This document shows, in pieces, positions 9,307 through 24,057 of a stretch of DNA of 24,057 nt; position 1 is the first letter of the stretch; each line of letters starts with the position of its first letter. Position numbers and translations under genes: made by a program. The notes beneath the pieces are model-generated. The model worked only from the letters and a program-made list of their open reading frames with translations. It was not told where the DNA came from and did not search any database. This DNA is from Alphaproteobacteria bacterium. GTDB lineage: Bacteria; Pseudomonadota; Alphaproteobacteria; Micavibrionales; UBA2020. The stretch is taken from assembly GCA_023136145.1 (NCBI GenBank), contig JAGLRU010000415.1, positions 1-24,057 on the forward strand. Reading direction: 5' to 3'.

Positions 9307-9387
9307 TTTAGTACTCTGTTAGACGTTATGGTCAGCCATAATTGGTTCGGAAATATAATCATTTGAAAAAATAACTATACCTTTTCC

Positions 9388-9519
9388 ATCACGCCGGACT
9401 TGTTCCGGCATCCATAAAGGCTGTCCAGCCGTCACTATGACCCTATTTTCATCATAAGACGCGCTTTTAGACCCCCGAACGAGTCGGGGGTGACAATGAG
9501 GGGGCGGCATGGCGTAAAG
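9388..9519. repeat. CGTC/RPE-like REP palindrome with nested 34-bp element and shared flank
   Basis: Left arm GCCGGA-CTTGT-TCCGGC (9393-9409) and right arm ACCCCCGA-ACGAG-TCGGGGGTGAC (9471-9494). The 9491-9519 flank resembles the flanks of the 21.9 kb and 23.5 kb repeats. Confidence 0.8.
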
Positions 9520-9588
9520 AAAATTCCTATCAATAAATTCAGGAACAACTATAAATTGCGCTTTTAAATTAGGGTTCAGAAATAATTG

Positions 9589-9891: not shown

Positions 9892-10229
9892 TATTTGCTT
9901 CTAATCTATTTCGAAAGGTTTCCTTTATATCGTCTGCGCCGAATCAGTTTATTCCGAGTCGTTTTTGATAAATTGGATAATTTTGATAAATATACTTGAA
10001 AATCATTTTTTTTAGGTGTTTTTAAGTTAAGAGCGAACAAGGCAAGGATGTATATGAGAAAAACAATTGATTTCATGTGGTTAAGAAAGTTATTAAATTA
10101 TAAACTCAAAGACATGAAATATAAAAAATCGATTTTCACATATTAATCTTGCTTTTTTCGGTAGAATGCGATTTTATGACATCGTATGGTGATAAGGAAC
10201 TAGGGTTCAACAATAGGGAGAAAAAATTC

Positions 10230-11216
10230 ATGGCTCGTCCAGGTCGTCCAAGAATGCCAAAAGCACCGCTTCCAGGTACGGTTGAGGCATTTCTAGATAT
10301 GCTCATCGCTGAACGCGGTGCAGCTCTTAATACACGTCACGCTTATGAGCGTGATCTTGCAGATGTTTGCGCTTTCTTGAAAAAGCAAAGCAAGGACATC
10401 AACTCTGCTTCAACAGGTGATCTAAAAGCTTATCTCGCTGAGCTTGGAGAACGCGTGAATGTGAAAAGCAAGGGTGGTGGAAAAACGGCTGTGCGTACTA
10501 TTGCACGTCGTATTTCAGCGTTACGCCAGTTTTTCGGCTTTCTCGTTTCCGAAGGCACTCGTTCGGATGATCCGACATCTACCATCGAAAGTCCGAAGCA
10601 AACTCGCACTTTGCCAAAAATCTTGAGTGAAGACGAAGTCACTGTCCTGATCACGACAGCTCAAAAACAGGGTGGGCCTGAGAGCGTCCGTCTTGTGTCT
10701 CTGCTTGAGATACTCTATGCAACGGGTCTACGCGTTTCTGAACTGGTTGGCTTGCCTCTGGCATCCATCGGTCCAGAAGGTCGCTACCTGACGGTTGAAG
10801 GCAAAGGTGGTCGTGAACGCATGGCTCCTCTGTCCGAACCAGCTCAGAGAGCAATGAAAGCGTATATGGATGTCAGGACGAGATTCTTGATACCTGATCG
10901 TGTTGATGCGCAAAGCAAATGGTTGTTCCCGTCTCGTACGTCCGAGTCTGGGCATTTGACCCGTCAGCGATTCGCTCAACTTCTGAAAGAGCTGTCGCGC
11001 AATGCTGGGCTTGATCCCGGACGTGTCAGTCCGCACGTTCTGCGTCACGCTTTCGCAACCCACCTTTTGAGACATGGTGCGGATTTACGTTCCGTGCAAA
11101 AAATGCTTGGTCATGCTGATATTGCCACAACTCAGATATACACACAGGTTGTAGGCGATCAGATGAAAAGTGCCGTTGAAACCAAACATCCACTCTCTGT
11201 AATAAATGAGTCCTGA
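10230..11216 (+). CDS. xerD: Site-specific tyrosine recombinase XerD
   Basis: Motifs FLDML.AERG...NT..AY..DL, LYATGLRVSEL, GKGGRER, SPHVLRHAFATHLL and LGHADIATTQIYT. RBS AGGGAG before ATG 10230. Confidence 0.93.
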   Translation: MARPGRPRMPKAPLPGTVEAFLDMLIAERGAALNTRHAYERDLADVCAFLKKQSKDINSASTGDLKAYLAELGERVNVKSKGGGKTAVRTIARRISALRQFFGFLVSEGTRSDDPTSTIESPKQTRTLPKILSEDEVTVLITTAQKQGGPESVRLVSLLEILYATGLRVSELVGLPLASIGPEGRYLTVEGKGGRERMAPLSEPAQRAMKAYMDVRTRFLIPDRVDAQSKWLFPSRTSESGHLTRQRFAQLLKELSRNAGLDPGRVSPHVLRHAFATHLLRHGADLRSVQKMLGHADIATTQIYTQVVGDQMKSAVETKHPLSVINES

Positions 11217-11370: not shown

Positions 11371-12330
11371 TTAATGCTTAAAGCCTATAAATGCGGGGCC
11401 TAGGATAATTACAAACAAAGGGGGCAGGAAGAACAGGATCATCGGCACCGTCAACTTTGGAGGCAGAGATGCAGCCTTCTGCTCCGCCGCTGCCATACGC
11501 AACTCGCGCGTTTCATCAGCCAGAACCCGTATAGCTTTAGATATCGATGTTCCGTACTGCTCCGCCTGTAGCATGGCCGACGCAAAAGAACGCGCAGGCC
11601 CACTGCCAACGCGATTAGCAAACCCTTGAAACGCTCCCTTACGATCATTCAGCAACCCAAGTTCAGCACTCAAAATTCCCAATTCTTCCGCAAGTGTTTC
11701 GGAATGTTCCGAAATTGTCGTAGCAATCCTGTTAATGGCTGCCTCGATACCAATCCCGCCCTGCACGCAGATCAGCATCATATCGAGAGCATCAGGAAAA
11801 GAGAGAGAGATTTCCATCTGACGCTTATCAGCCATATTCTTGACCAAAATACGCGGCAAGAAAAATCCAATAACGACAAGCCCCAAAAGAATCAAGAGCA
11901 CGATGGAATGAGAAATCTCCCTATGAGAAAGTCCCATAAACAACGCCCCAAGTCCCACGAACACCAACGGCAGCACAATTCTCGATCCGAGATAAATCAA
12001 CGGTGCCTTCGAACCGCGTATCCCCGCTTGCAATAACTGATTGCGTGCAGTGATACTAGCCTTTCCCGCCAGAGACTGAAGCTTATAAAGCGACACTATA
12101 GCTTGAGCCGCCGTCATTTCCTTTTGCTTAACAACATCCTGTTTTTCAGCCTGTTCGCGTGCCAGCTCAAACAACGTGCGACGTTTCTTTTCGATGACAT
12201 CCTTGTAGCGTTCCTTCTTTTCCGAACGCGCAAGCAACGGCAAGGCAAACGCCACAAAGGAAACGGCTGCGGCAAGCGCACTTAAAATCACGATATAAAC
12301 GCCGGAATCCATATTTGTAAGGGTATCCAT
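11371..12330 (-). CDS. tadC: Tad pilus inner-membrane platform protein TadC
   Basis: Motifs FPDALDMMLICVQGG, Q.E.YGT.I..A.RV.A.E.R and AEQKAASLPPKLTVPMILFFLP. Confidence 0.93.
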   Translation of the reverse strand: MDTLTNMDSGVYIVILSALAAAVSFVAFALPLLARSEKKERYKDVIEKKRRTLFELAREQAEKQDVVKQKEMTAAQAIVSLYKLQSLAGKASITARNQLLQAGIRGSKAPLIYLGSRIVLPLVFVGLGALFMGLSHREISHSIVLLILLGLVVIGFFLPRILVKNMADKRQMEISLSFPDALDMMLICVQGGIGIEAAINRIATTISEHSETLAEELGILSAELGLLNDRKGAFQGFANRVGSGPARSFASAMLQAEQYGTSISKAIRVLADETRELRMAAAEQKAASLPPKLTVPMILFFLPPLFVIILGPAFIGFKH

Positions 12331-12334
12331 ACCT

Positions 12335-13315
12335 TCAAATCCTGAAATTTATCATTTGTCGCATCATCAGACATCCCAGAAACATCCAGAAAATCGCTCC
12401 GCCGAGAAAAACTTGCCCTTTCGGAACTATAAAAAGAATCCCGACATACTCAGGACGCGCCGCATAAAGCCCAAGAGTCACCAGAACCGGAAGCGCGCCA
12501 ATAATCGCTGCTGAAGACTTTGCCTCAGAAGACAGTGCCTGAACCTTTCTCCTAAGCCGAAACCTTGCCCGTATAACTGCGGAAAGATTGTACAATACCT
12601 CGCTAAGACTGCTCCCCGTCTCGCTCTGTATCTGTAATGCCGTCGCAAACATATGCACCTCTGGCAGAGGCATCCGCCTTGCAGTCATTTGCGCTGCCTC
12701 TCCCAACGGAATACCTACTTTTTGGTTTTCGTAGATACGTAGCATTTCATCCTTGAGGGGACCTTTATACTCGCGCGAAGTCATTGCTATCGCCTCCGAC
12801 ATCGGCATTCCAGCCTGCAACAACCGCGCCATTGCATCCAGCGCATCGGGGAATTCCTTTAGAAATTTCTTCTGCCTGCGCTTTATTTTCCACCCGATAA
12901 AAAGCTTCGGAAGTCCAAGAAAAGCAGTGAAAATCATAAAAATCTTGGCCGTCGGTGCCCAACTTGTCAATAAGAGCAGTCCACCGACAAACACTGCAAA
13001 TATAGCCGAATTAAGCCAGAAACGCGGTACGGACGTTTCAAATCCCGCCTGCTGTAGCAATTGAGAAAGAGACGTTTTATCTTTTTTCTTCCCCTGAGTT
13101 TCGTCACTGACTCCCTTCAGCTTTTTAGCAATGTCAGCGCGTTGCTTTGCAGCCGCTTTTTCAGCACTCCCGTCCTGAGAGCTTCCAGCTTTAGCGCGAC
13201 AAATCACGGAGCGATACCTTTCCAGTCGAGCCTGTCTCTTGCCTATGTAAACGCTGATAACGGCGGAAATAGAGAGAAAAACGATAATAACTCCGATGGT
13301 GATTGGCCAACTCAT
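12335..13315 (-). CDS. tadB: Tad pilus inner-membrane platform protein TadB
   Basis: Motifs FPDALD..ARLLQAG.P, IQ.ETG..LSEVL.NL..VIR.R and LSSEAKSSA.II..LP. Start placed at ATG 13315, right after the cpaF stop. Confidence 0.93.
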   Translation of the reverse strand: MSWPITIGVIIVFLSISAVISVYIGKRQARLERYRSVICRAKAGSSQDGSAEKAAAKQRADIAKKLKGVSDETQGKKKDKTSLSQLLQQAGFETSVPRFWLNSAIFAVFVGGLLLLTSWAPTAKIFMIFTAFLGLPKLFIGWKIKRRQKKFLKEFPDALDAMARLLQAGMPMSEAIAMTSREYKGPLKDEMLRIYENQKVGIPLGEAAQMTARRMPLPEVHMFATALQIQSETGSSLSEVLYNLSAVIRARFRLRRKVQALSSEAKSSAAIIGALPVLVTLGLYAARPEYVGILFIVPKGQVFLGGAIFWMFLGCLMMRQMINFRI

Positions 13316-13316
13316 T

Positions 13317-14885
13317 CTAGGTATATGCCTCCGACATTGCATCCAACAATTTATTCTCAAGCCCGTACTGGCGTGCGCGTTCAAAAAGGATTGGACGCAA
13401 GCCAGTGGATTTCTGACGACCTATGATGTGGCCATGTTCATCTTCGCCCTCGTATTCAAACCGAAAAAGATCCTGCATCGTGACAACCTCGCCTTCCATG
13501 CCGGTGATCTCGGTGACATGCGTAACCTTACGCGATCCGTCGCGCAGACGCTGCACCTGAATAATTACATTGACGGCAGAAGCTATCTGCTCACGCACTG
13601 CGGCGGTAGGAAGATTCAGTCCACCCATTGCAATCATGTTCTCAAGACGAGTCAGGGCTTCACGTGGGTTGTTAGAGTGGACGGTTCCCATTGATCCATC
13701 GTGCCCGGTATTCATCGCTTGCAACAAATCAAAAGCCTCCGGCCCCCGCACCTCACCAACGATAATTCGATCAGGTCGCATCCGAAGACAGTTCTTAATA
13801 AGATCGCGCATTTTAACTTCGCCAACTCCCTCAAGATTTGGCGGGCGTGTTTCAAGACGAACGACGTGCGGTTGTTGCAATTGAAGCTCACAAGCATCCT
13901 CGCAAGTGACAATACGCTCGCCAGAATCCATGTAGAAAGTAAGGCAGTTGAGCATTGTCGTCTTTCCCGAACCAGTACCGCCGGAGATAACAACATTAGC
14001 GCGACATGCACCGATAATCTTAATCATCTCCGCGCAAGCTGGAGTCATAGCATTGAATTCCATAAGCTTTTCAAGCGTTAGCTTTTCCTTGGCAAACTTA
14101 CGAATCGTCATAGTACAGCCGTCAACGGCGAGCGGTGGGATAATAACGTTGACACGCGATCCGTCCGGCAGTCGCGCATCGCATATAGGGCTTGATTCAT
14201 CCACCCTGCGACCAATCACACCAACAACGCGCTGACAGATGGTAAGCAAATGATGATTATCACGAAATTCAATGGTGGCGCGCTGAATCTTTCCGTTAGT
14301 CTCAATATAAACCGTTTTCGGGCCATTAATCATGATGTCGGCGATGCCTTCTTGCGCCAATAACTCTTCTAATGGACCGAAACCGAGCATATCATCCGCC
14401 GATTCCTTGGCAACCTGCGCCAGTTCAGCAGGAGTCACGTCCAGACCGCGAAACTGACCAATTTCCTGCACTGCAGAAAGTATCTCCGCGCGCGCTTCAT
14501 CAGCACCCATGCGAGACAACGATTTCAGATCAATCCCATCACGGAGATCCGTCCATATCCTCTTACGCGCCCGCTCCAGACGCGGGTTAGCCGCCACAGC
14601 AGCAGGCGGCGGCGGAGGAGGAGGTTTTGGTGATGTTAGTTTTGACGATGCAGATTTTTGCGATGCTGGTTTCGACGTTGCTGGTTTCGGCGAAGACTCG
14701 GCAGTCTTGGAATCCGCAACTGCCGATTTTGGAGGAGTCGCTTCCGCCGTAATCGATACTGAAGACTGATCAATCGCAGGCTTTTCAGGAGAAGACGCGA
14801 CCGACTTTTTTGGCGGTACTGACGACGCTGGCTTAGCCGCTGGTGATCCGCCTTGTGGTTTGTCTGTACGCTTGCCGAACATCAT
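13317..14885 (-). CDS. cpaF: Tad pilus assembly ATPase CpaF/TadA
   Basis: MFGKR N-terminus, Walker A GGTGSGKTT, EDACEL, RMRPDRIIVGEVRG and AMNTGHDGSMGTVH. Confidence 0.97.
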   Translation of the reverse strand: MMFGKRTDKPQGGSPAAKPASSVPPKKSVASSPEKPAIDQSSVSITAEATPPKSAVADSKTAESSPKPATSKPASQKSASSKLTSPKPPPPPPPAAVAANPRLERARKRIWTDLRDGIDLKSLSRMGADEARAEILSAVQEIGQFRGLDVTPAELAQVAKESADDMLGFGPLEELLAQEGIADIMINGPKTVYIETNGKIQRATIEFRDNHHLLTICQRVVGVIGRRVDESSPICDARLPDGSRVNVIIPPLAVDGCTMTIRKFAKEKLTLEKLMEFNAMTPACAEMIKIIGACRANVVISGGTGSGKTTMLNCLTFYMDSGERIVTCEDACELQLQQPHVVRLETRPPNLEGVGEVKMRDLIKNCLRMRPDRIIVGEVRGPEAFDLLQAMNTGHDGSMGTVHSNNPREALTRLENMIAMGGLNLPTAAVREQIASAVNVIIQVQRLRDGSRKVTHVTEITGMEGEVVTMQDLFRFEYEGEDEHGHIIGRQKSTGLRPILFERARQYGLENKLLDAMSEAYT

Positions 14886-14895
14886 TTAACTCCTG

Positions 14896-16134
14896 TTACT
14901 TACCAAGAGTTTTCTTGATAAAACTCATCAGAGTGTCTTTTTCACCTTTGTCCACGATGCCTTTGCATTCAATCGCAGAAGCTTTCTCTGCAATCTTCAT
15001 AAGAGGCTCCATGACGCATCCTGCATTCTTGTTCTGACCGACAGACTTGCCTGTAGCTTCACTGATGGCGAAAATCTTCGGCATATATGGAAGCGTTGCC
15101 GAAGGCTCTATCCCCAAACCAAGCGCATCTTTGATCTCACGAGCAGGAACTTCCTCAGAGGAAGTCATGCCCCGCATATTCACTACCAAATCGGTTTCTT
15201 TCAAATGCGCTTTCAACGTTTTTATCTCATTCAACAGCGTCCTCGCATTTCTGAGCGCAGACAGCGTGGGCGTTGTCACCATAACGATTCTAGCCGCACG
15301 TTCCATCAGCCTTTTCTGCACAGGCCGTGTGGCGTGGGAAAGATCAACTACAACCACTGGAAATTTCAGCATTACGCGGCTCACAAGCGTCTCGATATCG
15401 TCTGGATCGGAAGGATCCATCAAGATCGGCTCTCCGCCACAGACAAGCGCGAAAAGATACTCCGACACGGATTGATAGATGCGATTCATATCGTCATCCG
15501 TTCCCGCTCCACCAAGACGAACGGCCTCTATCAACGTCGTGGAAGGTTCAAGGCCATGAGCGATCCCGATGCTACCAACGCTACCAGCTACATCCATCAG
15601 CATGGTCTTCTGCTTCAAAGCTTCCGCGATGTTCCAAGCCAGAATTTGCGCCACAGATGTCGCACCAACGCCACCTTTACTGCCCATCACTGCAACAAGG
15701 CGACTGCCGGAAAGACCCCTTTTATCGATCAGCGTCCTAGCAATCACTTTAGCCATATCTTCTTCGGAAACAGGACGCACCAAATAATCTCTAACCCCCA
15801 TCCCGACAAGACTGCGATACAGATGAACATCGTTGCTCGGCCCGATAATTACCGCATCAGTACCCTCCGCACACACACTTGCAAGTCCGCCAAGCTGCTC
15901 GATAAAAGCCTCGCCGATGTCGTTAGTTTCGATGACAACCAGCTCTGGAGCAGCCGTCTCCCCGTAATGGTTGATCGCGGCATCAATCCCCGCACGCTCT
16001 ATCTTCATGCCAACCCGCGCAAACCGCCAGTCTTCCGTAAGCTTCTGCGCCAGAGCAGCAGTGCTCTCGTCAAGCAAATAGAAATCCACATGTGAAGGAG
16101 GTAACAATATGGAGGTTATATCTTCTCCACCCAT
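14896..16134 (-). CDS. cpaE: Pilus localisation protein CpaE/TadZ (receiver-like plus MinD/ParA-like domain)
   Basis: Motifs IGPSNDVHLYR.L...GV.DYL..P and deviant Walker A KGGVGAT; TAATG overlap with cpaD. Confidence 0.92.
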   Translation of the reverse strand: MGGEDITSILLPPSHVDFYLLDESTAALAQKLTEDWRFARVGMKIERAGIDAAINHYGETAAPELVVIETNDIGEAFIEQLGGLASVCAEGTDAVIIGPSNDVHLYRSLVGMGVRDYLVRPVSEEDMAKVIARTLIDKRGLSGSRLVAVMGSKGGVGATSVAQILAWNIAEALKQKTMLMDVAGSVGSIGIAHGLEPSTTLIEAVRLGGAGTDDDMNRIYQSVSEYLFALVCGGEPILMDPSDPDDIETLVSRVMLKFPVVVVDLSHATRPVQKRLMERAARIVMVTTPTLSALRNARTLLNEIKTLKAHLKETDLVVNMRGMTSSEEVPAREIKDALGLGIEPSATLPYMPKIFAISEATGKSVGQNKNAGCVMEPLMKIAEKASAIECKGIVDKGEKDTLMSFIKKTLGK

Positions 16135-16790
16135 TACTGAACACCAACCGAACTGGCTTGAAACCCCTGCATCGGCTTATTGGGTATTCCAGCCTTATAT
16201 TTTACAACGAAAGCACCAGTACGACTTGAATCATTGTCCTGCGCACCCGACTTGCCCATCAGATCGGATGGATCGGCGATCATCTGACTCAACGACATCT
16301 TCGTTTCACATCCGAACTTGTACTGCTCTATCGCTTCCATATTCTCAGCACCCTGATATCCTGTAATACGACCGCAACCATCAGGAGGCAAAGCCACTAA
16401 TGCCTGATAAGCCACCACTACCTTGTTGAGATACAGCTCATTCGCGACTGGAACCTTAACTACATGAATGTCTGAAACACCACGCTTACTAAGTGCTTTC
16501 TTATACGCAGCTCCATGTTTTGTAGCTATGCGTGAGCTATACACATCTCCAGAAAGCCATGGAACCGTCAGAGTGACAGCCCCTTTTCCGTTCCGCTTAA
16601 TATGATCGGCCAACACATCAACACGCGCCTGATCAACATGAGAGGAATCCAGCATTTCCGTGACTATCTGCTCTTTAAGTCTAACTTTCCCAGTCTGAAC
16701 CTGCGAAGGCAAAGATGCGTCACAGGCTGACAGGACGACTGCAACACTAAATATCAGCACGAGAGAAACCAGTCTATATGCTTGTTGCAT
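16134..16790 (-). CDS. cpaD: Pilus assembly lipoprotein CpaD
   Basis: Signal peptide with lipobox LSAC and C-terminal FGC.T...L..MIADPSDL. RBS AGGAG before ATG 16790. Confidence 0.85.
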   Translation of the reverse strand: MQQAYRLVSLVLIFSVAVVLSACDASLPSQVQTGKVRLKEQIVTEMLDSSHVDQARVDVLADHIKRNGKGAVTLTVPWLSGDVYSSRIATKHGAAYKKALSKRGVSDIHVVKVPVANELYLNKVVVAYQALVALPPDGCGRITGYQGAENMEAIEQYKFGCETKMSLSQMIADPSDLMGKSGAQDNDSSRTGAFVVKYKAGIPNKPMQGFQASSVGVQ

Positions 16791-16818
16791 GGTATAAGCT
16801 CCTTCTGTCCCTTTAGTC

Positions 16819-18243
16819 CTAGTCAATGATATAACCAAAACCAGCACCAAAGCTAGCTTTCTCAGATACACGATTACCGTATGTTTTTTTCAAATTCTCC
16901 ATGAAGCGTTGAGATAGCGGACTCATAGCCGTTACTTTTACTTTTTGCTCAGAGGGTTTCTTTTTCCCCTGAGAAGCAGTAGAAGCAACGACAAAAGGCT
17001 TATCTGCAACAACTACGGCCTCGGGTTCCGCATAAGGATCCACAAGATATGGTGTCACGATAATCACCAACTCCGATTCATTCCGCGAGAAAGATTTAGA
17101 CTTAAACAAATGCCCCAAAATCGGCAAATCCTCCAACCCGGGCATTCCGTTCAGGGCGTGCAACGTATCGGATTTGAGAAGCCCAGCAATCATAAGAGTG
17201 CCACCGCTACCCATTTCCACGGTGGTTTCGGCACGCCGAACTCTAAGTCCGTCAATCTGAACATCAACAAGAGTCACGCCGTTTGTGCTGTCTTTTTCAG
17301 ATACCTCTGTAGACATGTGCAGAGCAATGCGTTCTTTATTGAGAACAGTCGGCGTAAAGTTCAGAGATACTCCAAACTGTTTAAATTCGATAATGACGTT
17401 TCCAGTTGAATCCCTGCCTGTCGGAACTGGATATTCACCGCCAGCCAAAAACCCAGCCGTTTCGCCAGAAATCGCCGTCAGTGTAGGCTCTGCTAGAGTA
17501 TTAACCAAACCATTCTGTTCCAATGCCCTAATCGTAGCCGTCAGCGGCCCAAACTGCCCCTTCTTCCCCACAAGAAGCGCGCCGCTACCAAATGGAGTCA
17601 GAACGGCTCTGCCAACATCACCAGCGTTCATTATAAAGCCGTTTGTGCTTGCTGTTCTAAAATCCGTTTCAATACCGAAATCACGCAACACAGAACGCCT
17701 AGCTTCGATCACCTTAACTTTAAGCATTACCTGCTGCTTGCCTTTAACCGTCATCAAATCAACTAGAGTTTGCTCCTTATCGATCATAAACCTCGTCGCG
17801 AGGTCCCTCACCTGAGCAGATATCAACGGACTGGAAACAGTACCGCTCAGAACGATATTTTCTTTTACGGTTTTCGCAGCAATCTTCTCATCCGGAAAAA
17901 ATTCCTTCAACGTCTTCTGAAGGTTTTTGTCATCGACGCGCACATGAATCGTGATATTAGCAAGCTGATTTCCAACCTCATCATAAGCAAGCACATTAGT
18001 ATCACCAACCTTGCGCCCTACAATATAAAGACGGTCAGCTCTGAGCGTTCCAACATCGGCAATGGATGGATCGGCCACCAACACATCTGCCACAGCTCCT
18101 GCCAGATCGACAGTATCGGCCCTGCCCGATATCAACTGAACTGTTTTGTTGAAGCTCTTAGCACTATAAGCCACCATCGAAACGGAGACTCCAATCGAGA
18201 CCACTATCAACAGCAGTAAAACTTTTGAAAAAATGTGTTTCAT
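16819..18243 (-). CDS. cpaC: Tad secretin CpaC/RcpA
   Basis: Signal peptide, VADP.IADV N-domain, BON-like segment, QVML.V...E, LAEP.LTA.SGETA.FLAGGE.P and GLEDLPILG.LFKS..F...ESELVI.VTPYLV. Confidence 0.95.
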   Translation of the reverse strand: MKHIFSKVLLLLIVVSIGVSVSMVAYSAKSFNKTVQLISGRADTVDLAGAVADVLVADPSIADVGTLRADRLYIVGRKVGDTNVLAYDEVGNQLANITIHVRVDDKNLQKTLKEFFPDEKIAAKTVKENIVLSGTVSSPLISAQVRDLATRFMIDKEQTLVDLMTVKGKQQVMLKVKVIEARRSVLRDFGIETDFRTASTNGFIMNAGDVGRAVLTPFGSGALLVGKKGQFGPLTATIRALEQNGLVNTLAEPTLTAISGETAGFLAGGEYPVPTGRDSTGNVIIEFKQFGVSLNFTPTVLNKERIALHMSTEVSEKDSTNGVTLVDVQIDGLRVRRAETTVEMGSGGTLMIAGLLKSDTLHALNGMPGLEDLPILGHLFKSKSFSRNESELVIIVTPYLVDPYAEPEAVVVADKPFVVASTASQGKKKPSEQKVKVTAMSPLSQRFMENLKKTYGNRVSEKASFGAGFGYIID

Positions 18244-18258
18244 AGTATCACCCCTTTC

Positions 18259-19143
18259 TTAGGGCATTGTCGTAGAACGTACCGGCACGTTCGTCACGGA
18301 GGAACCGCTATAAACACGTACAGTATCGGAAGATACTTTCGATTTGTCCATGATGTCGTATATTTTCCTGATAACGAGACTTGTACTTACATCCGTCGTC
18401 AACGGCACATCCCTATCAGCTTTGGTATCCTGTTCGCCGAGTCGCCTGAGCGACAGGCTTATGTCACCCATCGTAGATGCCATCGCAAGAATCTGCGCAC
18501 CCTGTTTGCTAACCTCAATGGTTATAGTACGTGCCACCTTAGCTTCGCGACTGCCCTCCTTAGAATTTTGATCCACCGCCAAAACACGCACGTTGCTCAA
18601 GACCGTCTCGCTGGCATAACGCTGTATCGCATCGGAGGAATAATTTGCTACTTCCCCTTTCAGATTTATCTGATAGGTCAGAATTATATCCACATAATCG
18701 CTAGGAGAAACAAACCCACCAGCAGCTGTTTCCGCTTTTACTCGAATGCTCACAGCTCTCATGCCGGGGGCAATAGATGCTGATAAAAATTTACCGCTGC
18801 CTTTCGCATCAGAAACAACTGCCTGTGTCGTCACTGGTTCTCCAGACTCAAGAGTACGGCGCAAAGGTTTGTTATAAACTTTTAGTTTTTTTTCGTCGGT
18901 TTGATCTTTTCTTTTAATCAAGCCCTTGAATACAAGATCGTCCGGCATAAATGCCCAGTCCACATCCGTTTCTTTCAGAGTTTCACCAACCAGCAATGTT
19001 TTTTTCGTGACAAGAATTTCAGTACTTGCTACTGCCACACCACGATTCCTCGATTTAGGAGAGAGATTCATCTGCACCACCACTGCCACCACAACGGAGA
19101 TAACAATCGCTCCACCCATAACCATCAAAACGTTTTTTTTCAT
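18259..19143 (-). CDS. cpaB: Flp pilus assembly protein CpaB/RcpC
   Basis: N-terminal TM segment, SAF domain, GMRAVSI...A.GGFV.P.DYVDIILT and VL.NVRVLAVDQ. RBS GGGGA before ATG 19143. Confidence 0.93.
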   Translation of the reverse strand: MKKNVLMVMGGAIVISVVVAVVVQMNLSPKSRNRGVAVASTEILVTKKTLLVGETLKETDVDWAFMPDDLVFKGLIKRKDQTDEKKLKVYNKPLRRTLESGEPVTTQAVVSDAKGSGKFLSASIAPGMRAVSIRVKAETAAGGFVSPSDYVDIILTYQINLKGEVANYSSDAIQRYASETVLSNVRVLAVDQNSKEGSREAKVARTITIEVSKQGAQILAMASTMGDISLSLRRLGEQDTKADRDVPLTTDVSTSLVIRKIYDIMDKSKVSSDTVRVYSGSSVTNVPVRSTTMP

Positions 19144-19225
19144 GAAAATTCCCCAAACAAGCAACCCGACCCGTTCTTATACTGGCATAGAAATTTGATT
19201 TTGTAATAAAAAAGATTGAATGTTT

Positions 19226-19759
19226 CTAATGAATTATTTTAAGAACTTCATTTAACTGGCTACACGCAAATCCTGTATGGAAAAAAGCAGCCCAAAATCC
19301 GAAACTTATGGCAACACCATAAGGAAGCGCATTGCGCCCATCCTGAAGCTCCGCCACCCAACTTCCCGGCATTGGATTTTTGAAAGGTTTTTTTCTGAAA
19401 ATAACGAGAGCAATGAATCCGATAAATCCTCCAATAATCGCCATATAGAATATAAAAGGCATCAGTCCCTTTAGTCCTATCCAAAGCCCAAGCACCGTTC
19501 CAAGCTTAGAATCTCCTCCACCCATCATGCCAAAAACAAACATAACGTAACTAACCACAAACATAATTACCATCGCAACAAGATGCTGCCATAAAGCATT
19601 AAAAGATTCCGGCGACGCAAAATACGCAGGGAAAAAACAAAACAGAATCACTAGAGAATTAAAATTACGTATGTGCAATGACCTTACATCCGAGATGCAG
19701 CTCAAAAGAGTTACGATTAAAACAATAAAAACCATCGTCGGAGATATGATCGCCATCAC
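19226..19759 (-). CDS. cpaA: Flp prepilin peptidase CpaA/TadV (A24)
   Basis: Motifs SD.RSL.I.N, GGGDSKL and LPYGVAI; multi-TM protein. Confidence 0.92.
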   Translation of the reverse strand: MMAIISPTMVFIVLIVTLLSCISDVRSLHIRNFNSLVILFCFFPAYFASPESFNALWQHLVAMVIMFVVSYVMFVFGMMGGGDSKLGTVLGLWIGLKGLMPFIFYMAIIGGFIGFIALVIFRKKPFKNPMPGSWVAELQDGRNALPYGVAISFGFWAAFFHTGFACSQLNEVLKIIH

Positions 19760-19769
19760 GTCCTCAAGA

Positions 19770-19803
19770 AAGAACCCGCTCTTTTTTCAAGGAGCGGGTT
19801 CTT
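19770..19803 (-). terminator. Intrinsic terminator-like hairpin between flp and cpaA
   Basis: 12-bp stem AAGAACCCGCTC/GAGCGGGTTCTT, U-rich at the 3' side on the minus strand. Confidence 0.75.
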
Positions 19804-19840
19804 ACATGTATGCGCCAAAAAAATAAATGGCGACTTTGTA

Positions 19841-20032
19841 TTATTCCGCAGCAGCAGCTTGAAGTTGCGTATCTACGTTTGTAAACAATGCTACCAAATC
19901 GTCACCAACAGCGAAAACAACCACGGAAATAGCAACAGCAATACCCGCTGCAATCAGACCGTATTCAATAGCAGTTGCTCCATCATTGGAACGCATAAAC
20001 GCTTCTTTTTTAGCCCAAAGTTTTAACAGCAT
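19841..20032 (-). CDS. flp: Flp/PilA type IVb(c) pilin
   Basis: Cleavage motif DG|ATAIEYGLIAA with E at +5 followed by Y. RBS GGAGG before ATG 20032; 63 aa. Confidence 0.96.
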   Translation of the reverse strand: MLLKLWAKKEAFMRSNDGATAIEYGLIAAGIAVAISVVVFAVGDDLVALFTNVDTQLQAAAAE

Positions 20033-20115
20033 AGCTACCCTCCATTGTTTAATTAAAGTCACTTGCTAATAAAGTTAACTCATAGCCTTATACCTTTATC
20101 CTAACGCTATAGTGA

Positions 20116-20130
20116 TTAAAGTTCAGTAAA
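20116..20130 (-). promoter_or_regulatory. Possible CtrA box upstream of flp (1 mismatch)
   Basis: Minus strand TTTA-CTGAACT-TTAA. AT-rich context lowers specificity. Confidence 0.35.
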
Positions 20131-20258
20131 AAAAACATGTTTAAACAGTTAATTTTTGAATTTTTATGACTATTACTATAGTTTTCGCACTATTTATTTA
20201 CATACAAGTTTATCATATAAAAACAAAATAAAATTGATTGAAAAAATATCCGTTCAAC

Positions 20259-21038
20259 CTAAATTTTTTCTGAATCAATTTCCATCCCGTCATAAACAGG
20301 TCGAATGTTCGGAGGCAATTCGTCACAAAGCGTCTTGTAATCCATATTAGTGCCAAGATCAGTAATATATGTCATTTTCGGCTTCAAATGCTCCACCCAT
20401 TTTTTAACTTTCTGAATATTTGCATGAGTCAAAGTCTCCTCTTTATTATAGGAACCAGCATCAACGATCCAAATATCGATACCCTCCAGAACCTTCATTG
20501 ACCTATCATTTATATTCACAACATCCACACTGTATGCCACACGCCCGAACCGAAATCCGAGAGATGAGCAAGTCATGTGATCCTGCTCAAAACTTTCTAT
20601 ATCAATATCGCCGATACGGAATTTCTGGTAATTTTCAATATGCTTTTTTTTGAGAAACTCAAAGTAAAGGTCATCCCCCTTCGGCCTGAAAATATATGGG
20701 CATCGACGATCAATCTCTTCCAGAGTCTCAAAATTGCCGTAAACATTCATCAACTCATCGCCTTGGAGAGAAATAATTTTCAAATCATCAATGCCATTTA
20801 TATGGTCGGAATGTGCGTGACTGATAAGTACCCCATCCAGCTTCTTCAGGTTGAATCGATTTAATTGTGTGCGTAATTCCACCGTTGCATCCACAAGAAT
20901 ATTGGTTGTTTCCGACTGCACCAGAATGGATGAGCGCGTGCGATTATTTTTGGGATTATTCGGATCGCAATCTCCCCAAAAGCCTCCCGCCATCGGCGTT
21001 CCCATCGATGCACCGCAACCTAAAATCGTTATTTTCAT
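20259..21038 (-). CDS. MBL-fold metallo-hydrolase (PhnP/YycJ-like)
   Basis: Motifs ILGCGASMGTP, R.RSSILV and SHAHSDHINGIDD; ATGA overlap with tatD. Confidence 0.92.
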   Translation of the reverse strand: MKITILGCGASMGTPMAGGFWGDCDPNNPKNNRTRSSILVQSETTNILVDATVELRTQLNRFNLKKLDGVLISHAHSDHINGIDDLKIISLQGDELMNVYGNFETLEEIDRRCPYIFRPKGDDLYFEFLKKKHIENYQKFRIGDIDIESFEQDHMTCSSLGFRFGRVAYSVDVVNINDRSMKVLEGIDIWIVDAGSYNKEETLTHANIQKVKKWVEHLKPKMTYITDLGTNMDYKTLCDELPPNIRPVYDGMEIDSEKI

Positions 21039-21832
21039 GTGACATCACCGGACGGTTTTATCTTAGTAAATAGCTTAAAAAAGTTTTTGGTTGTTTGCTT
21101 TGCTACTTCCTCCGGCGAAACGCCCTTTAACTCCGCCACCATCTGCGCGGTATGCACTACAAAGGCTGGTTCATTCCGTTTTCCGCGATGTGGCAAAGGT
21201 GCAAGATAAGGCGAGTCTGTTTCCACCAGAATACGATCCAGCGGCACATATTTCACCACCTCACGCAACTCATCGGACTTTTTAAAAGTGATAATACCGG
21301 AAAAAGAAATATAAAAGCCAAGCGCGAGAGACTCCTCTGCCAGTTTCTGACTACTGCTAAAGCAATGCATTACGCCACGCACTTTCCCCTGCCCGACATC
21401 CCGCATCAGACGGAATGTATCATCCTCCGCCTCGCGGGTATGAACGATAAGCGGCAGATCAGTTTCCGCTGCTGCTTCTATATGCGTCGTAAAAGCCCTT
21501 TGCTGATCCTCAACTGGCGAATAATTGTAATGATAGTCAAGACCCACCTCCCCTATTCCAACCACCTTTGGATTTTTGGTGTAAGAAATAATATCCTTAA
21601 CAGTAATATTCTTTTCATTTGGTTCCGCTGCATGATGAGGATGCGTACCAACAGTACAGTGAACACACGGAAACTGCTCAGCAATAGCTACAACCTTATC
21701 AAATTCAGCAATGCGTGTGCAGATCGTTAACAAATGCCCGACACCCGCAGCTTTGGCACGAGAAACAATCTCCGCCGCTCCTTCATCCGCAAAATCCGAA
21801 AACTCAAGATGGCAATGGCTGTCTATAAGCAT
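21035..21832 (-). CDS. tatD: TatD family metal-dependent nuclease
   Basis: Motifs DSHCHL, GTHPH, GEVGLDY, HTREAE, HCFS and ETDSPYLAP. Confidence 0.96.
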   Translation of the reverse strand: MLIDSHCHLEFSDFADEGAAEIVSRAKAAGVGHLLTICTRIAEFDKVVAIAEQFPCVHCTVGTHPHHAAEPNEKNITVKDIISYTKNPKVVGIGEVGLDYHYNYSPVEDQQRAFTTHIEAAAETDLPLIVHTREAEDDTFRLMRDVGQGKVRGVMHCFSSSQKLAEESLALGFYISFSGIITFKKSDELREVVKYVPLDRILVETDSPYLAPLPHRGKRNEPAFVVHTAQMVAELKGVSPEEVAKQTTKNFFKLFTKIKPSGDVT

Positions 21833-21861
21833 TATCAAAAACCTTTCGTTTTAAAAAACGT

Positions 21862-21900
21862 CCTTATTCTAACCTTCTCCCGCCTGCAGGAGAAGGGACT
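21862..21900. repeat. Short palindrome of the 'CCCTCACCCTAACCCTCTCCCGC...GGGAGAGGG' intergenic type
   Basis: CCTTATTCTAA-CCTTCTCC-CGCCTGCA-GGAGAAGG-GAC with an 8-bp stem. Family assignment is from recall. Confidence 0.55.
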
Positions 21901-21930
21901 ATTTGGAATTGTTATTACAAATTCTTTACT

Positions 21931-22046
21931 GTCATACCCCCCACCAATGCCATTCCAACAAAGCGTGAAACGCGCCGAGGAATCTTTTTTAATAACCAGT
22001 TAAAGATCCCTCGTCGGCACAAAAAGTGCCTCACTCGGGATGACAA
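21931..22046. repeat. CGTC-type REP palindrome, copy 1
   Basis: Core 21945-22046 aligns with 23483-23584 at 96/102 nt. Terminal G(C/T)CATTCC...GGGATGAC, internal GCGT-GAA-ACGC, GAGGAATCT/AGATCCCTC and GGCAC-N-GTGCC stems. Confidence 0.92.
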
Positions 22047-22068
22047 TTTTTAGTTTTTCAACAAACCC

Positions 22069-23460
22069 CTAAAGCTTAAACCGCCGCCGTATTTGTAAAA
22101 TCCAGATAAACCAGATTATAGAACTTAAGAGTATATGGACAAAGCCAAGTATTTTTACTGTAACGCTGTTTGGAATAATTAACCTACTGTCACTAAAAGC
22201 CAATCCAAAAGGACCAAATGTATTTTTAAAAGCATAGAAAAGGTTTGTATACCCTCCCTCACAAACATCTTTTGCCCATCCCTGAATAGGAAGTGCAGCA
22301 ATTGCAGCACAATCACCCCTGTTAGATGCAGCATAAAATATTAAAAATAAATCCCCAAAGATGAATAACCAGAGAAAAGGGAGCCAAAGATTTCTGCCGT
22401 AGTTTGTTAGTTGTTTAAGACAGAAAGAAAATATAGTTTCAACCCCTTTTGGGCTGGATAGAATGTTTTGCCAGCCTTTCGGCAGTTCCGTGTTATAGCG
22501 GGACTCCAGTTCAAGAGCATGAAACATCTGTGCTTCATGATCAGATTCATTTTTCATCATAAACTGCTTTAACGTTCTATATGTAGAACATGCCCACAAC
22601 GATGATGTATCCAAAAAACTACAATCTTTCAAATACATGTCTGCATAGAACTTAGCTTCGAAAAATTCCGGTGCACCAAAGAATTCTGCTCTTTCAAATG
22701 AAGCAGAATCATTAAAAATTGCCTTTTTAAATGAAATATAATCATTAAAAGTTACTTCCTCAAATGAGACAAAATTGTTAAAAGTTGCCTTCTTAAATAA
22801 AACAATATTTTTAAAAATTGATCCTTTAAATGAGACATTATCGTTAAAAACAGTATTTGAAAAATCTATTCGAGGAACTCTCACATTATCACCAAATTCA
22901 CAATGGAGAAATAGTGCTGAATCAATAAATTCTATATTGCTGCAATCAAATCCTTCCGAAAATAAAGTGTGTTTACAAAAAATATCCCCTAAAACAAGAT
23001 TTTTTTCGAATTTACAATTAAAAATTTTGGAATCATCTATAAAAAGCTTATCAGAACCTCCAAATCGCAAAACTTTCAAATCTGTAATTTCACATTTTTT
23101 AAACCTCACGCTTAAAGGTTCTTTCCTTGAGTTTTCTATTACAAAACTTTTTATAGAGCAGTTTTTAAATTCTAAACTAATTTCACTAGCATAATCCCAG
23201 AATTTAATGTCTTCGAATATACGGAACAACAAAGAAAACAGCTTTAAACGTTTTTTAAAAACATATGTGTCTTCAAATAAAATATTTTCAAACTCAAAGG
23301 AAAAAGGAGTCTTTTCTTCATTTCCATGAAGTTTTCGAAATTCCAACTGATCGGAAATCAATTTATAAATCTCATCTGCTGTAATTTCTTTTAATACAGT
23401 CCCTTCTGGAATCCCTGCTGGAAACTTTTTTCGCTGCATCATATTAATCTTCCGTTCCAT
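22069..23460 (-). CDS. Pentapeptide-repeat protein with C-terminal membrane domain
   Basis: aa 200-284 hold about eight 11-aa FxxAxFxxxxx units. The C-terminus has YGR..W.P, two hydrophobic helices and a re-entrant-like segment. The gene is visibly AT-rich; the start may be 23442. Confidence 0.85.
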   Translation of the reverse strand: MERKINMMQRKKFPAGIPEGTVLKEITADEIYKLISDQLEFRKLHGNEEKTPFSFEFENILFEDTYVFKKRLKLFSLLFRIFEDIKFWDYASEISLEFKNCSIKSFVIENSRKEPLSVRFKKCEITDLKVLRFGGSDKLFIDDSKIFNCKFEKNLVLGDIFCKHTLFSEGFDCSNIEFIDSALFLHCEFGDNVRVPRIDFSNTVFNDNVSFKGSIFKNIVLFKKATFNNFVSFEEVTFNDYISFKKAIFNDSASFERAEFFGAPEFFEAKFYADMYLKDCSFLDTSSLWACSTYRTLKQFMMKNESDHEAQMFHALELESRYNTELPKGWQNILSSPKGVETIFSFCLKQLTNYGRNLWLPFLWLFIFGDLFLIFYAASNRGDCAAIAALPIQGWAKDVCEGGYTNLFYAFKNTFGPFGLAFSDSRLIIPNSVTVKILGFVHILLSSIIWFIWILQIRRRFKL

Positions 23461-23468
23461 GAAATACC

Positions 23469-23584
23469 GTCATGCCACTCCTCAATGTCATTCCGACAAA
23501 GCGTGAAACGCGCCGAGGAATCTTTCTAAATAACCAGTGAAAGATCCCTCGTCGGCACCAAAAGTGCCTCACTCGGGATGACAA
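23469..23584. repeat. CGTC-type REP palindrome, copy 2 (direct repeat of copy 1)
   Basis: GTCATTCCGACAAAGCGTGAAACGCGCCGAGGAATCT...AGATCCCTCGTCGGCACCAAAAGTGCCTCACTCGGGATGAC. Confidence 0.92.
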
Positions 23585-23598
23585 AGAGAAAAAAGCCA

Positions 23599-24057
23599 TC
23601 ACCCCCGCTCATCCACAACACGCGGGAAAACACCTTCCGGTTTTGGCAGCGGGGTTCCGGCTTTTAGCGCATAAGCTTCACCGATAAAGCTAAAGTCGCG
23701 TTCTTCTGCATTTACCGCCACCTGATCCAGAATTTTCTGCGCAGCATCGGGAGTAAACGGTTGAATAATAAGCCCCAGATTGCGAATAACTTCAGCCAGC
23801 ACATACAGCACCGTCGCCATACGATCAGGATTTGTTTTTTTAAGCTTCCACGGTGCCTGCGCGTCAATATAAAGATTTGCCGCGTGAGACACTGAAATAA
23901 ATTCCTCGATGGCGCGGCTAAACTGCATCTTTTCAAACTCCGACCGGACTGCTATCAACATCGCCTGCCCTGCCCTACCAAGCAACGCCTTGTCAGCATC
24001 TTCAAGAATGCCCGGCTGCGGCACTTTTGCATCGCAATTTTTGTTAATCATGGAAAG
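23599..24057 (-). CDS. metG: Methionyl-tRNA synthetase, 3' part (anticodon-binding domain; begins beyond window)
   Basis: LSMINKNC, AN.YID.QAPWKL, TVLYVLAEVIR, L.IQPFTP and LPKPEGVFPR; upstream of tatD. Confidence 0.95.
   Translation of the reverse strand, partial: LSMINKNCDAKVPQPGILEDADKALLGRAGQAMLIAVRSEFEKMQFSRAIEEFISVSHAANLYIDAQAPWKLKKTNPDRMATVLYVLAEVIRNLGLIIQPFTPDAAQKILDQVAVNAEERDFSFIGEAYALKAGTPLPKPEGVFPRVVDERG

Follow-up and report, generated by a model that had tools for sequence, protein, structure and literature searches.

A predicted pentapeptide-repeat gene framed by CGTC-type hairpin dimers at the metG–tatD junction of a cold-seep alphaproteobacterium: a probable minimal-mobile-element-like locus

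The metG–tatD junction of an alphaproteobacterium from cold-seep sediment (Micavibrionales; UBA2020) contains a single AT-rich gene, called here the cargo gene, which is enclosed by two direct copies of a dimeric repetitive extragenic palindrome (REP), named REP_up and REP_dn. We consider that this is probably a minimal-mobile-element-like accessory locus with an architecture in the style of NTS–gene–NTS of Neisseria, in which the hairpin dimers would be part of the framing homology and recombine with each other. The window analysed (24,057 nt; GenBank assembly GCA_023136145.1, JAGLRU010000415.1) spans all of contig C352, which is the longest in metagenome bin G000 (455 contigs with a median of 3.3 kb, 2.1 Mb, 44.9% GC). 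G000 denotes this genome, G001, G002 and G035 are related genomes, and labels of the form L0xx are loci or contigs compared with it. All parts of the locus lie on the minus strand, in the order metG, REP_up, cargo gene, REP_dn, tatD and a gene for a metallo-beta-lactamase (MBL)-fold hydrolase, as follows.

23599-24057, minus strand: metG 3' end, anticodon-binding domain (Pfam Anticodon_3/Anticodon_1; junction comparison).
23585-23598, minus strand: left outer flank, T-rich, 14 nt from the metG stop to REP_up, positionally homologous by alignment to the flank left of the single dimer of L093.
23465-23584, minus strand: REP_up, upstream repeat copy (40-nt unit 23543-23582, 20-nt spacer, inverted 36-nt unit 23487-23522, leader 23465-23486).
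22069-23460, minus strand: cargo gene, 463 codons, or 457 if the ATG at 23442 is used, as called on scaffold L096 (PF13576; GC3; structural model; hydropathy).
22687-22851, minus strand: five tandem 33-nt units in the cargo gene, corresponding to the 11-residue period of the pentapeptide region.
22047-22068, minus strand: 22-nt spacer from the cargo stop codon to REP_dn.
21927-22046, minus strand: REP_dn, downstream repeat copy (40-nt unit 22005-22044, 36-nt unit 21949-21984, leader 21927-21948).
21839-21926, minus strand: right outer flank, with a conserved AACAATTCCAAATAG segment, hairpin repeat E and the ribosome-binding region of tatD; it shares ~85% identity with the stretch right of the empty-allele dimer.
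21872-21896, minus strand: small hairpin repeat E with a CCTTCTCC stem, unrelated to the dimers.
21035-21832, minus strand: tatD, TatD-family hydrolase (Pfam PF01026, E 1e-89).
20259-21038, minus strand: MBL-fold hydrolase gene (PF12706).

The two direct repeats (21927-22046 and 23465-23584) are 120 nt long and 90% identical, with 12 mismatches that lie mostly in the leader, and they are 1538 nt apart from start to start. Each copy is a heterodimer: two hairpin units of 40 and 36 nt stand in inverted orientation on either side of a 20-nt spacer, and a 22-nt leader with a CGTCAT pseudo-tag adjoins the 36-nt unit. The units start with TGTCAT or a one-base variant, end with GAGGRATC and have their tags facing outward; all four carry TGTCAT except for one GCCAT in REP_dn, and the leaders carry CGTCAT or TGTCAT pseudo-tags. 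The sequence shared by the copies stops 3 nt beyond the outer CGTCAT pseudo-tag and ~1 nt beyond the TGTCAT tag of the 40-nt unit. An initial annotation, made from the letters of the window alone, had described two direct 102-bp cores (21945-22046 and 23483-23584) lying 22 nt from the gene ends. Both statements held, the cores being 94% identical with 6 mismatches and the gene having its stop at 22069 and its first ATG at 23460. REP_up is identical in L044 and, across three assemblies, the flanking copies are 90–100% alike, whereas any other genomic copy reaches at most 74% over 120 nt. This marks the two flanking copies as duplicates of local origin, as opposed to a chance pair.

By tag, dimer layout and association with a nuclease gene, the repeats are best classified as CGTC-tagged REPs of the Ssn-related motif (SRM) class, of which the 36/40-nt units appear to be longer variants. 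CGTC-tagged REPs, described by Di Nocera et al. (2013), are found mostly in Alphaproteobacteria, often as dimers with 20–100-nt spacers, and had no known enzyme (PMC3733652). The 20-nt spacer found here falls within that range, and the same layout recurs at at least 12 other loci. With strict patterns, 60 half-units in 49 loci were detected genome-wide against none in shuffled sequences; these patterns were used in preference to a generic tagged-hairpin finder, which was noisy (184 matches against ~80 in shuffles). Among the 41 genomes searched, the family was present only in G000 and its closest relative G001. A scan of the genome collection with the pattern of the 40-nt unit matched the closest relative only, and the JGI metagenomes gave no match for the 40-nt unit or for the tatD leader. 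The initial annotation had noted that REPs can be processed in trans by RAYT (REP-associated tyrosine transposase) enzymes. A RAYT-type REP was rejected, as the tags are (C/T)GTC and not GTAG and the associated gene encodes a GIY-YIG protein; no RAYT gene was seen, and no genome-wide search aimed at RAYT was made. A wider role for hairpin loci as general markers of foreign islands was considered and dropped: a genome-wide test of whether they lie beside AT-rich DNA was not significant, with a median minimum flank GC of 0.400 against 0.408 (p 0.15).

The enclosed unit is one open reading frame (ORF), in the same orientation as metG upstream and the tatD and MBL genes downstream. Its GC content is 32.2% and its GC at third codon positions (GC3) is 0.27, against 0.43–0.52 for its neighbours and 0.38–0.52 for 12 other ORFs of the window, in line with the first description of the gene as AT-richer than its surroundings. 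That description had also reported no transposase or integrase gene within the repeat–gene–repeat unit, and none was found there. The sole tyrosine recombinase of the window (10149-11216) is XerD-type and lies 11 kb from the unit; it scored 339 bits with PRK00283, above the cut-off, and 120 bits with the integron-integrase model, for which the cut-off is 265.

Comparison with relatives showed that the junction exists in several states. The contiguity of metG, tatD and the MBL gene, which the initial annotation had given as common in Alphaproteobacteria, was seen in nearly all of 40 relatives, and in ~30 genomes of the genus, family and order the metG stop lies 0–8 nt from the tatD start or overlaps it, without a repeat. 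Three sister lineages, represented by contigs of the same cold-seep study, have metG 3' ends 86–91% identical to this genome or to each other. In L093/L094 the site is empty: the metG stop is followed by a T-rich flank, one small dimer of 24-nt hairpins, the AACAATTCCAAATAG segment, repeat E and tatD. Its left flank aligns with the flank left of REP_up, and its right flank is the counterpart of that right of REP_dn, so that an empty site with one REP, as had been predicted for close relatives, does exist with homologous outer flanks. A joint 21913>23609 with 84 intervening letters showed the empty allele again, in three runs in which the occupied allele was present too. L046 is occupied. Here the same small dimer is followed by a leader homologous to the 5' leader of the cargo gene of this genome and then by a 50%-identical cargo, and the indel edge lies directly after the tag of the second hairpin. 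The C-terminus of an IS3-family transposase (L046:1555-1791, reverse strand) begins ~30 nt past the stop of the cargo homologue, where the downstream dimer would be expected, and this remnant hides the downstream side of the locus. In L095 the junction consists of AT-rich non-coding DNA and a decayed unit, followed by E and tatD. The empty form is flank–dimer–flank and the occupied form flank–dimer–gene–dimer–flank, an arrangement that supports presence or absence of a gene bounded by the dimer, that is, a putative repeat-delimited indel.

A different gene occupies the junction in G001, the closest sampled species, where a 230-codon Asp/Glu racemase gene (L006:2306-2998) lies without hairpins. 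The expectation of different cargo in relatives was thus borne out as far as the gene is concerned, and not as to the repeats. This racemase gene is patchily distributed, with a 44%-identical homologue elsewhere in G000 (C306). The metG product itself ends in ..VVDERG* here, ..VVDE* in the sister lineages and ..DE(x)AKTA* in the rest of the genus. Truncation of metG by an insertion was considered and dropped, because the L093/L046 alignment shows that the ..VVDE end is sub-lineage-wide and that the TAG stop was merely lost here.

The occupied alleles of this type also differ among themselves. L044 is 98.6–100% identical to this genome over the metG 3' end, REP_up and the first ~40 nt of the gene, then 64–85% identical, and again 92–97% identical through REP_dn into tatD. 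L043 equals L044 over codons 61–300 and this genome over codons 361–490; it may be a recombinant, or else the assembler may have fused two co-occurring alleles into a chimera. Synonymous divergence (dS) between the two allele types is 0.33 and nonsynonymous divergence (dN) is 0.17, and the metG flank differs by 1.4%. With dS inside the gene so far above the flank difference, the alleles are much older than the flanks they occupy. In the pentapeptide region dN/dS is ~1, and the alleles differ by one 33-nt unit. The mosaic points to allele exchange by homologous recombination, with apparent breakpoints inside the gene and beyond REP_dn. Furthermore, upstream-type bases occur in the downstream copy of L044, which matches the upstream copy at 97% identity, compared with 90% here. 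As judged from these sequences, the flanking copies evolve in concert, by gene conversion between them.

The arrangement could, in principle, be an assembly artefact, with a foreign AT-rich contig joined into the metG–tatD block through the shared repeats of a fragmented metagenome-assembled genome. The composition of the cargo gene is deviant, the bin is highly fragmented and repeats often end contigs. However, the same part order with metG and tatD flanks was present on a 60-kb scaffold, whose sequence is identical and perhaps from the same population and so not independent, and on a 2-kb contig from another sample, again with both flanks. In run X1, which covered the region best, assembler word depth was even (~21–43) over metG, the cargo gene and tatD, and mismatch-free unitigs ran along most of the region. 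In addition, a diverged cargo follows metG in L046 too. We therefore regard misassembly as very unlikely.

The reading that we favour, a minimal-mobile-element-like locus, would work as follows. A lineage-specific, fast-varying gene lies in the hairpin-repeat-filled spacer of the normally gapless metG|tatD junction, and its two dimers are local duplicates of one CGTC/TGTC-tagged heterodimer. Ordinary homologous recombination would swap alleles between co-occurring lineages by way of the conserved metG, tatD and repeat flanks, and the direct dimers would recombine together, giving the conversion seen between them and, presumably, deletion to a single dimer. Cutting of single-stranded DNA at the outward hairpin tags by Ssn, a GIY-YIG nuclease, might modulate such events, for example on incoming DNA or at replication forks, by analogy with what is shown for NTS–gene–NTS DNA of Neisseria. 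Anatomy, repeat family, allele series, mosaicism and conversion between the copies are observed here; a direction of the change (gain or loss), a role of Ssn and read-through of the cargo from the metG operon are matters of inference.

Several observations weigh against this reading. The allelic breakpoints are not at the repeats, and the repeats are therefore not needed for allele exchange; the chimera option for L043 counts on the same side. By distance L093 and L046 pair most closely (91% against 86%), which would speak for loss, but the metG overlap is only 126 nt and its informative sites are split 3:3. The 36/40-nt dimers are of another type than the small 24-nt hairpins found in the empty allele, and there was therefore at least one round of repeat replacement between the empty allele and this locus. 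Neither an excised circle nor a same-lineage empty site was seen among the assembled contigs, which drop rare forms. The published degenerate SRM pattern (8–9-bp stem, 4–5-nt loop) was unmatched anywhere in the window; genome-wide it gave 20 matches against 9–12 in shuffles, with ~12 canonical copies outside the window, and it matched unit 1 of the small dimers in L093 and L046. Finally, ComEC and DprA are present, but prove nothing about competence.

Alternatively, the gene may have entered by an unrelated route, such as illegitimate recombination beside a resident dimer, with the repeat family colonizing both spacers later and playing a role, if any, only as RNA hairpins for message stability or translation of metG, cargo and tatD. 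We regard this as doubtful, though it deserves serious attention. Most CGTC-class REPs are found 3' of genes, in the gaps separating co-directional ORFs, and an RNA function has been proposed for many of them (PMC3733652). Both copies fold strongly as RNA (REP_up, −54.4 kcal/mol, z −5.4; REP_dn, −48.3 kcal/mol, z −3.6), and the dimers are host-like in GC whereas the cargo is not. The spacers also hold the unrelated repeat E and degenerate tag remnants, and the locus therefore accumulates repeats in general; moreover, at 9491-9519 the same ~25-nt leader stands before another repeat body, a sign that new repeats may land beside old tags. With 49 hairpin loci in 2.1 Mb, ~1 bracketed gene per genome would be expected by position alone. 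On the other hand, each copy has its nearest relative in the other by a wide margin, the units of both run in one order and orientation, and sequence has been converted between them. Just one dimer is present in the empty allele, where both outer flanks are kept and the indel edge coincides with the tag of that dimer; a later colonization would need an extra coincidence to account for it.

The leader at 9491-9519 carries a G(T/C)CAT(A/G)CC pseudo-tag and also accompanies both metG–tatD copies. It belongs to a hairpin-repeat cluster downstream of a DUF2336 gene (9380-9520 of the window), which includes a TGTCAC-type unit. The leader may belong to what moves, or it may be a site at which repeats prefer to land; an origin as a remnant of an older small dimer was made uncertain by its presence before this different body. 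Repeat E, preceded by AATAG, was also found at C307:3125-3157, C337:1056-1081 and C267:10585-10608. In L046, an E copy with a nested insertion lies on the other side of the hairpin dimer, directly after the metG stop, and element E therefore also moves.

A link with a nuclease gene came from the sole other copy of the 40-nt unit (C357), which adjoins a gene for a 94-residue GIY-YIG protein. The initial annotation had proposed looking for a RAYT or GIY-YIG gene beside other copies, and it is the latter that was found. The gene (1503-1787; PF01541, E 6.2e-17 over residues 4–76) is inserted between cobS and cobT and is framed by hairpin units at 1344-1492 and 1795-1820 (module C357:1340-1825, L003). 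Its product has the size of the single-domain Ssn family (~90–100 residues); the NCBIfam match was weak and sub-threshold, and there was no match in PDB. A near-identical second copy lies at the start of C149 with a dimer behind it, and C100 (200-2100, L098) has a GIY-YIG gene interrupted by a TAG stop, with an array of hairpin modules after it. Of 30 loci with homologous small GIY-YIG genes in the order, 16 have perfect GTCAT-tagged hairpins no more than 250 nt away. Chenal et al. (2025) reported that NTS/SRM hairpins flank genes of the GIY-YIG family Ssn, and that Ssn binds the motif hairpins only as single-stranded DNA and cuts a few nucleotides upstream; the hairpin–gene–hairpin layout of the nuclease gene was likened by its discoverers to an insertion sequence (PMC11893778).

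The C100 region, which lies as a whole directly downstream of guaA, also has 85-nt direct repeats (547-632 and 879-963) with AT-rich non-coding DNA between them, followed by two orphan ORFs of 31–36% GC. At C346:1449-1806 (L097), two canonical inverted CGTCAT hairpins exactly enclose a 100-codon ORF of 38% GC without a Pfam match, which lies between a tetratricopeptide-repeat protein gene and a gene for an ATPase of the SMC/RecF/RecN family. The ORF could encode a diverged nuclease or be a further framed cargo.

The nuclease link bears on a more active scheme, in which the dimers would serve as att-like ends and the Ssn GIY-YIG nuclease would excise and integrate promoterless genes downstream of resident promoters, integron-like without an integron. 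We find this improbable. There is one dimer when the site is empty and two in direct order when it is occupied, the nuclease gene has the same hairpin–gene–hairpin layout, and the shared sequence stops 1–3 nt outside the outer tags, where Ssn would cut; SsnA reportedly cleaves its substrate a few nucleotides upstream of the motif (PMC11893778). The cargo gene is co-oriented with the operon; a promoter/terminator scan of 21500-24057 was at chance level, with no expression signal of its own for the cargo, and an Rfam search of 19000-24057 (E up to 1) gave nothing relevant. Different cargo at the junction in G001 would also fit. However, Ssn is a nuclease with no known strand-transfer activity (PMC11893778), and the window has no integron integrase, only the distant XerD-type recombinase. 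The G001 cargo lacks repeats, more distant cargo homologues occur at other loci without such hairpins, and no circle junction or second context for the repeat–gene–repeat unit was found. One cargo family only is framed by these repeats: a genome-wide list of bracketed genes, as proposed at the outset, yielded no second cargo but only the nuclease gene and the C346 ORF. Nor was a cassette array found, with no further repeat–gene units in the 24-kb window or in 12.8 kb of the 60-kb scaffold. What stands of the REP-delimited cassette originally put forward is the repeat-delimited indel; integron-like capture under the metG promoter is not supported, in view of the lack of a recombinase, an array and a second cargo, and of breakpoints lying away from the repeats. 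We give little credence to the view that SRM-class dimers and the GIY-YIG nuclease form a gene-mobilizing system, in which cuts just outside the outward tags would release or admit dimer-plus-gene modules at operon junctions with neither integrase nor transposase.

The cargo product matched Pentapeptide_3 (PF13576, E 1.3e-18). In an AlphaFold model (pLDDT 72), a helix at the N-terminus precedes a beta-helix that extends to about residue 290, and the C-terminal domain is helical; the hydropathy profile has two strongly hydrophobic C-terminal segments (residues 357–380 and 427–458). The protein is thus predicted to be a pentapeptide-repeat beta-helix protein with a C-terminal membrane domain. 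That domain is the best-conserved part of the family, and an Atlas feature search offered, as a lead only, kinship with the membrane domain of pentapeptide/Ion_trans_2 proteins. An exact look-up of the cargo protein returned no record. Homologues are patchy (six of the 41 related genomes, this one included) and also occur at other loci, for example 3 nt after guaA in G035 and beside atpH in L045; at all six other loci examined they were 13–22 GC points below their flanks, which counts as a sign of foreign origin. In G002, distant pentapeptide/membrane homologues (~25–30% identical) at L039 and L041 have inverted GTCATTGCGAGCGTAGCGTGGCAATC hairpin pairs beside or inside them.

Elsewhere in the window, a complete-looking Tad/Flp pilus cluster (11371-19759) lies downstream of the MBL gene, with genes for a prepilin peptidase, CpaB/RcpC, a secretin, CpaD, an ATPase and two TadB/C-like proteins. 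Related contigs have an annotated Flp pilin gene in the interval from the MBL gene to the peptidase gene.

Among known systems, the closest parallel is with NTS/dRS3 and SsnA of Neisseria, which share with the repeats described here the oriented (C/T)GTCAT tag, the inverted pairs and a framed small single-domain GIY-YIG gene (PMC11893778). The NTS–gene–NTS layout also has its counterpart here in a framed variable membrane-protein gene with much greater sequence diversity than the genes beside it. In meningococci, NTS repeats cluster at membrane-protein genes and lower the transformational replacement of NTS-flanked DNA (PMC11893778). Unlike NTS/dRS3, the hairpins here are bipartite, 36/40 nt long and off the published pattern, they occupy ~50 loci in an uncultured cold-seep host, both nuclease activity and competence are putative, and the locus offers an empty allele with one dimer. 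With CGTC-1 to -4 REPs (PMC3733652), the repeats have in common the CGTC/TGTC tag, AT-starting stems, heterodimers with 20–100-nt spacers, a position downstream of co-directional genes and the predominance in Alphaproteobacteria, and the small hairpins of the sister lineages resemble CGTC-1. In contrast with the 8–9-bp stems and 4–5-nt loops of those REPs (PMC3733652), the 36/40-nt units have longer stems and loops and an extra pseudo-tag leader.

The minimal mobile element was defined by Saunders & Snyder (2002) and Snyder et al. (2007), as quoted in PMC3082526. As far as the quoted definition goes, the likeness is that conserved metG and tatD hold different whole-gene cassettes or nothing, and that the mosaic flanks point to homologous recombination. 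The contents found between them are the pentapeptide gene (two allele types 68–78% identical, plus the 50% variant), the racemase gene, the one-dimer empty site and the abutting junction. The comparison differs in that it was made between closely related species and lineages in metagenomes and not between strains of one cultured species, and transformation would at most be inferred by analogy. REP/BIME-REPIN systems with RAYT likewise have short extragenic palindromes as inverted dimers and a cognate enzyme gene framed by the same repeats. Here, however, there is no GTAG tag, and the enzyme is a GIY-YIG nuclease with no covalent DNA intermediate. Integron cassettes resemble this locus in that the cargo has no detected promoter, is co-oriented with a promoter-bearing operon and is bounded by imperfect palindromes foldable in single-stranded DNA, but integrons differ in having IntI, attI, a cassette array and evidence of site-specific recombination, none of which was seen here.

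Earlier publications already describe the repeat class, its nuclease, the way in which the repeats frame genes and their link with variable membrane-protein genes, and no new mechanism is demonstrated here. What is new is the host group, the longer unit variants and an allele series that places the indel edge at a dimer. One set of cold-seep sediments has provided a natural series comprising a one-dimer empty site, a two-dimer occupied site, diverged cargo, different cargo and an abutting junction, in which a gene-sized indel has its edges at the repeat and diversity in the enclosed membrane-protein gene greatly exceeds that in the flanks. This pattern matches the statistical inference made for dRS3/NTS-adjacent genes of meningococci, and extends it to a free-living or predatory-type group of Alphaproteobacteria. 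The locus bears on the questions of what role Ssn nucleases and their hairpins have outside Neisseria and of the part that CGTC-type REPs may play in gene gain and loss.

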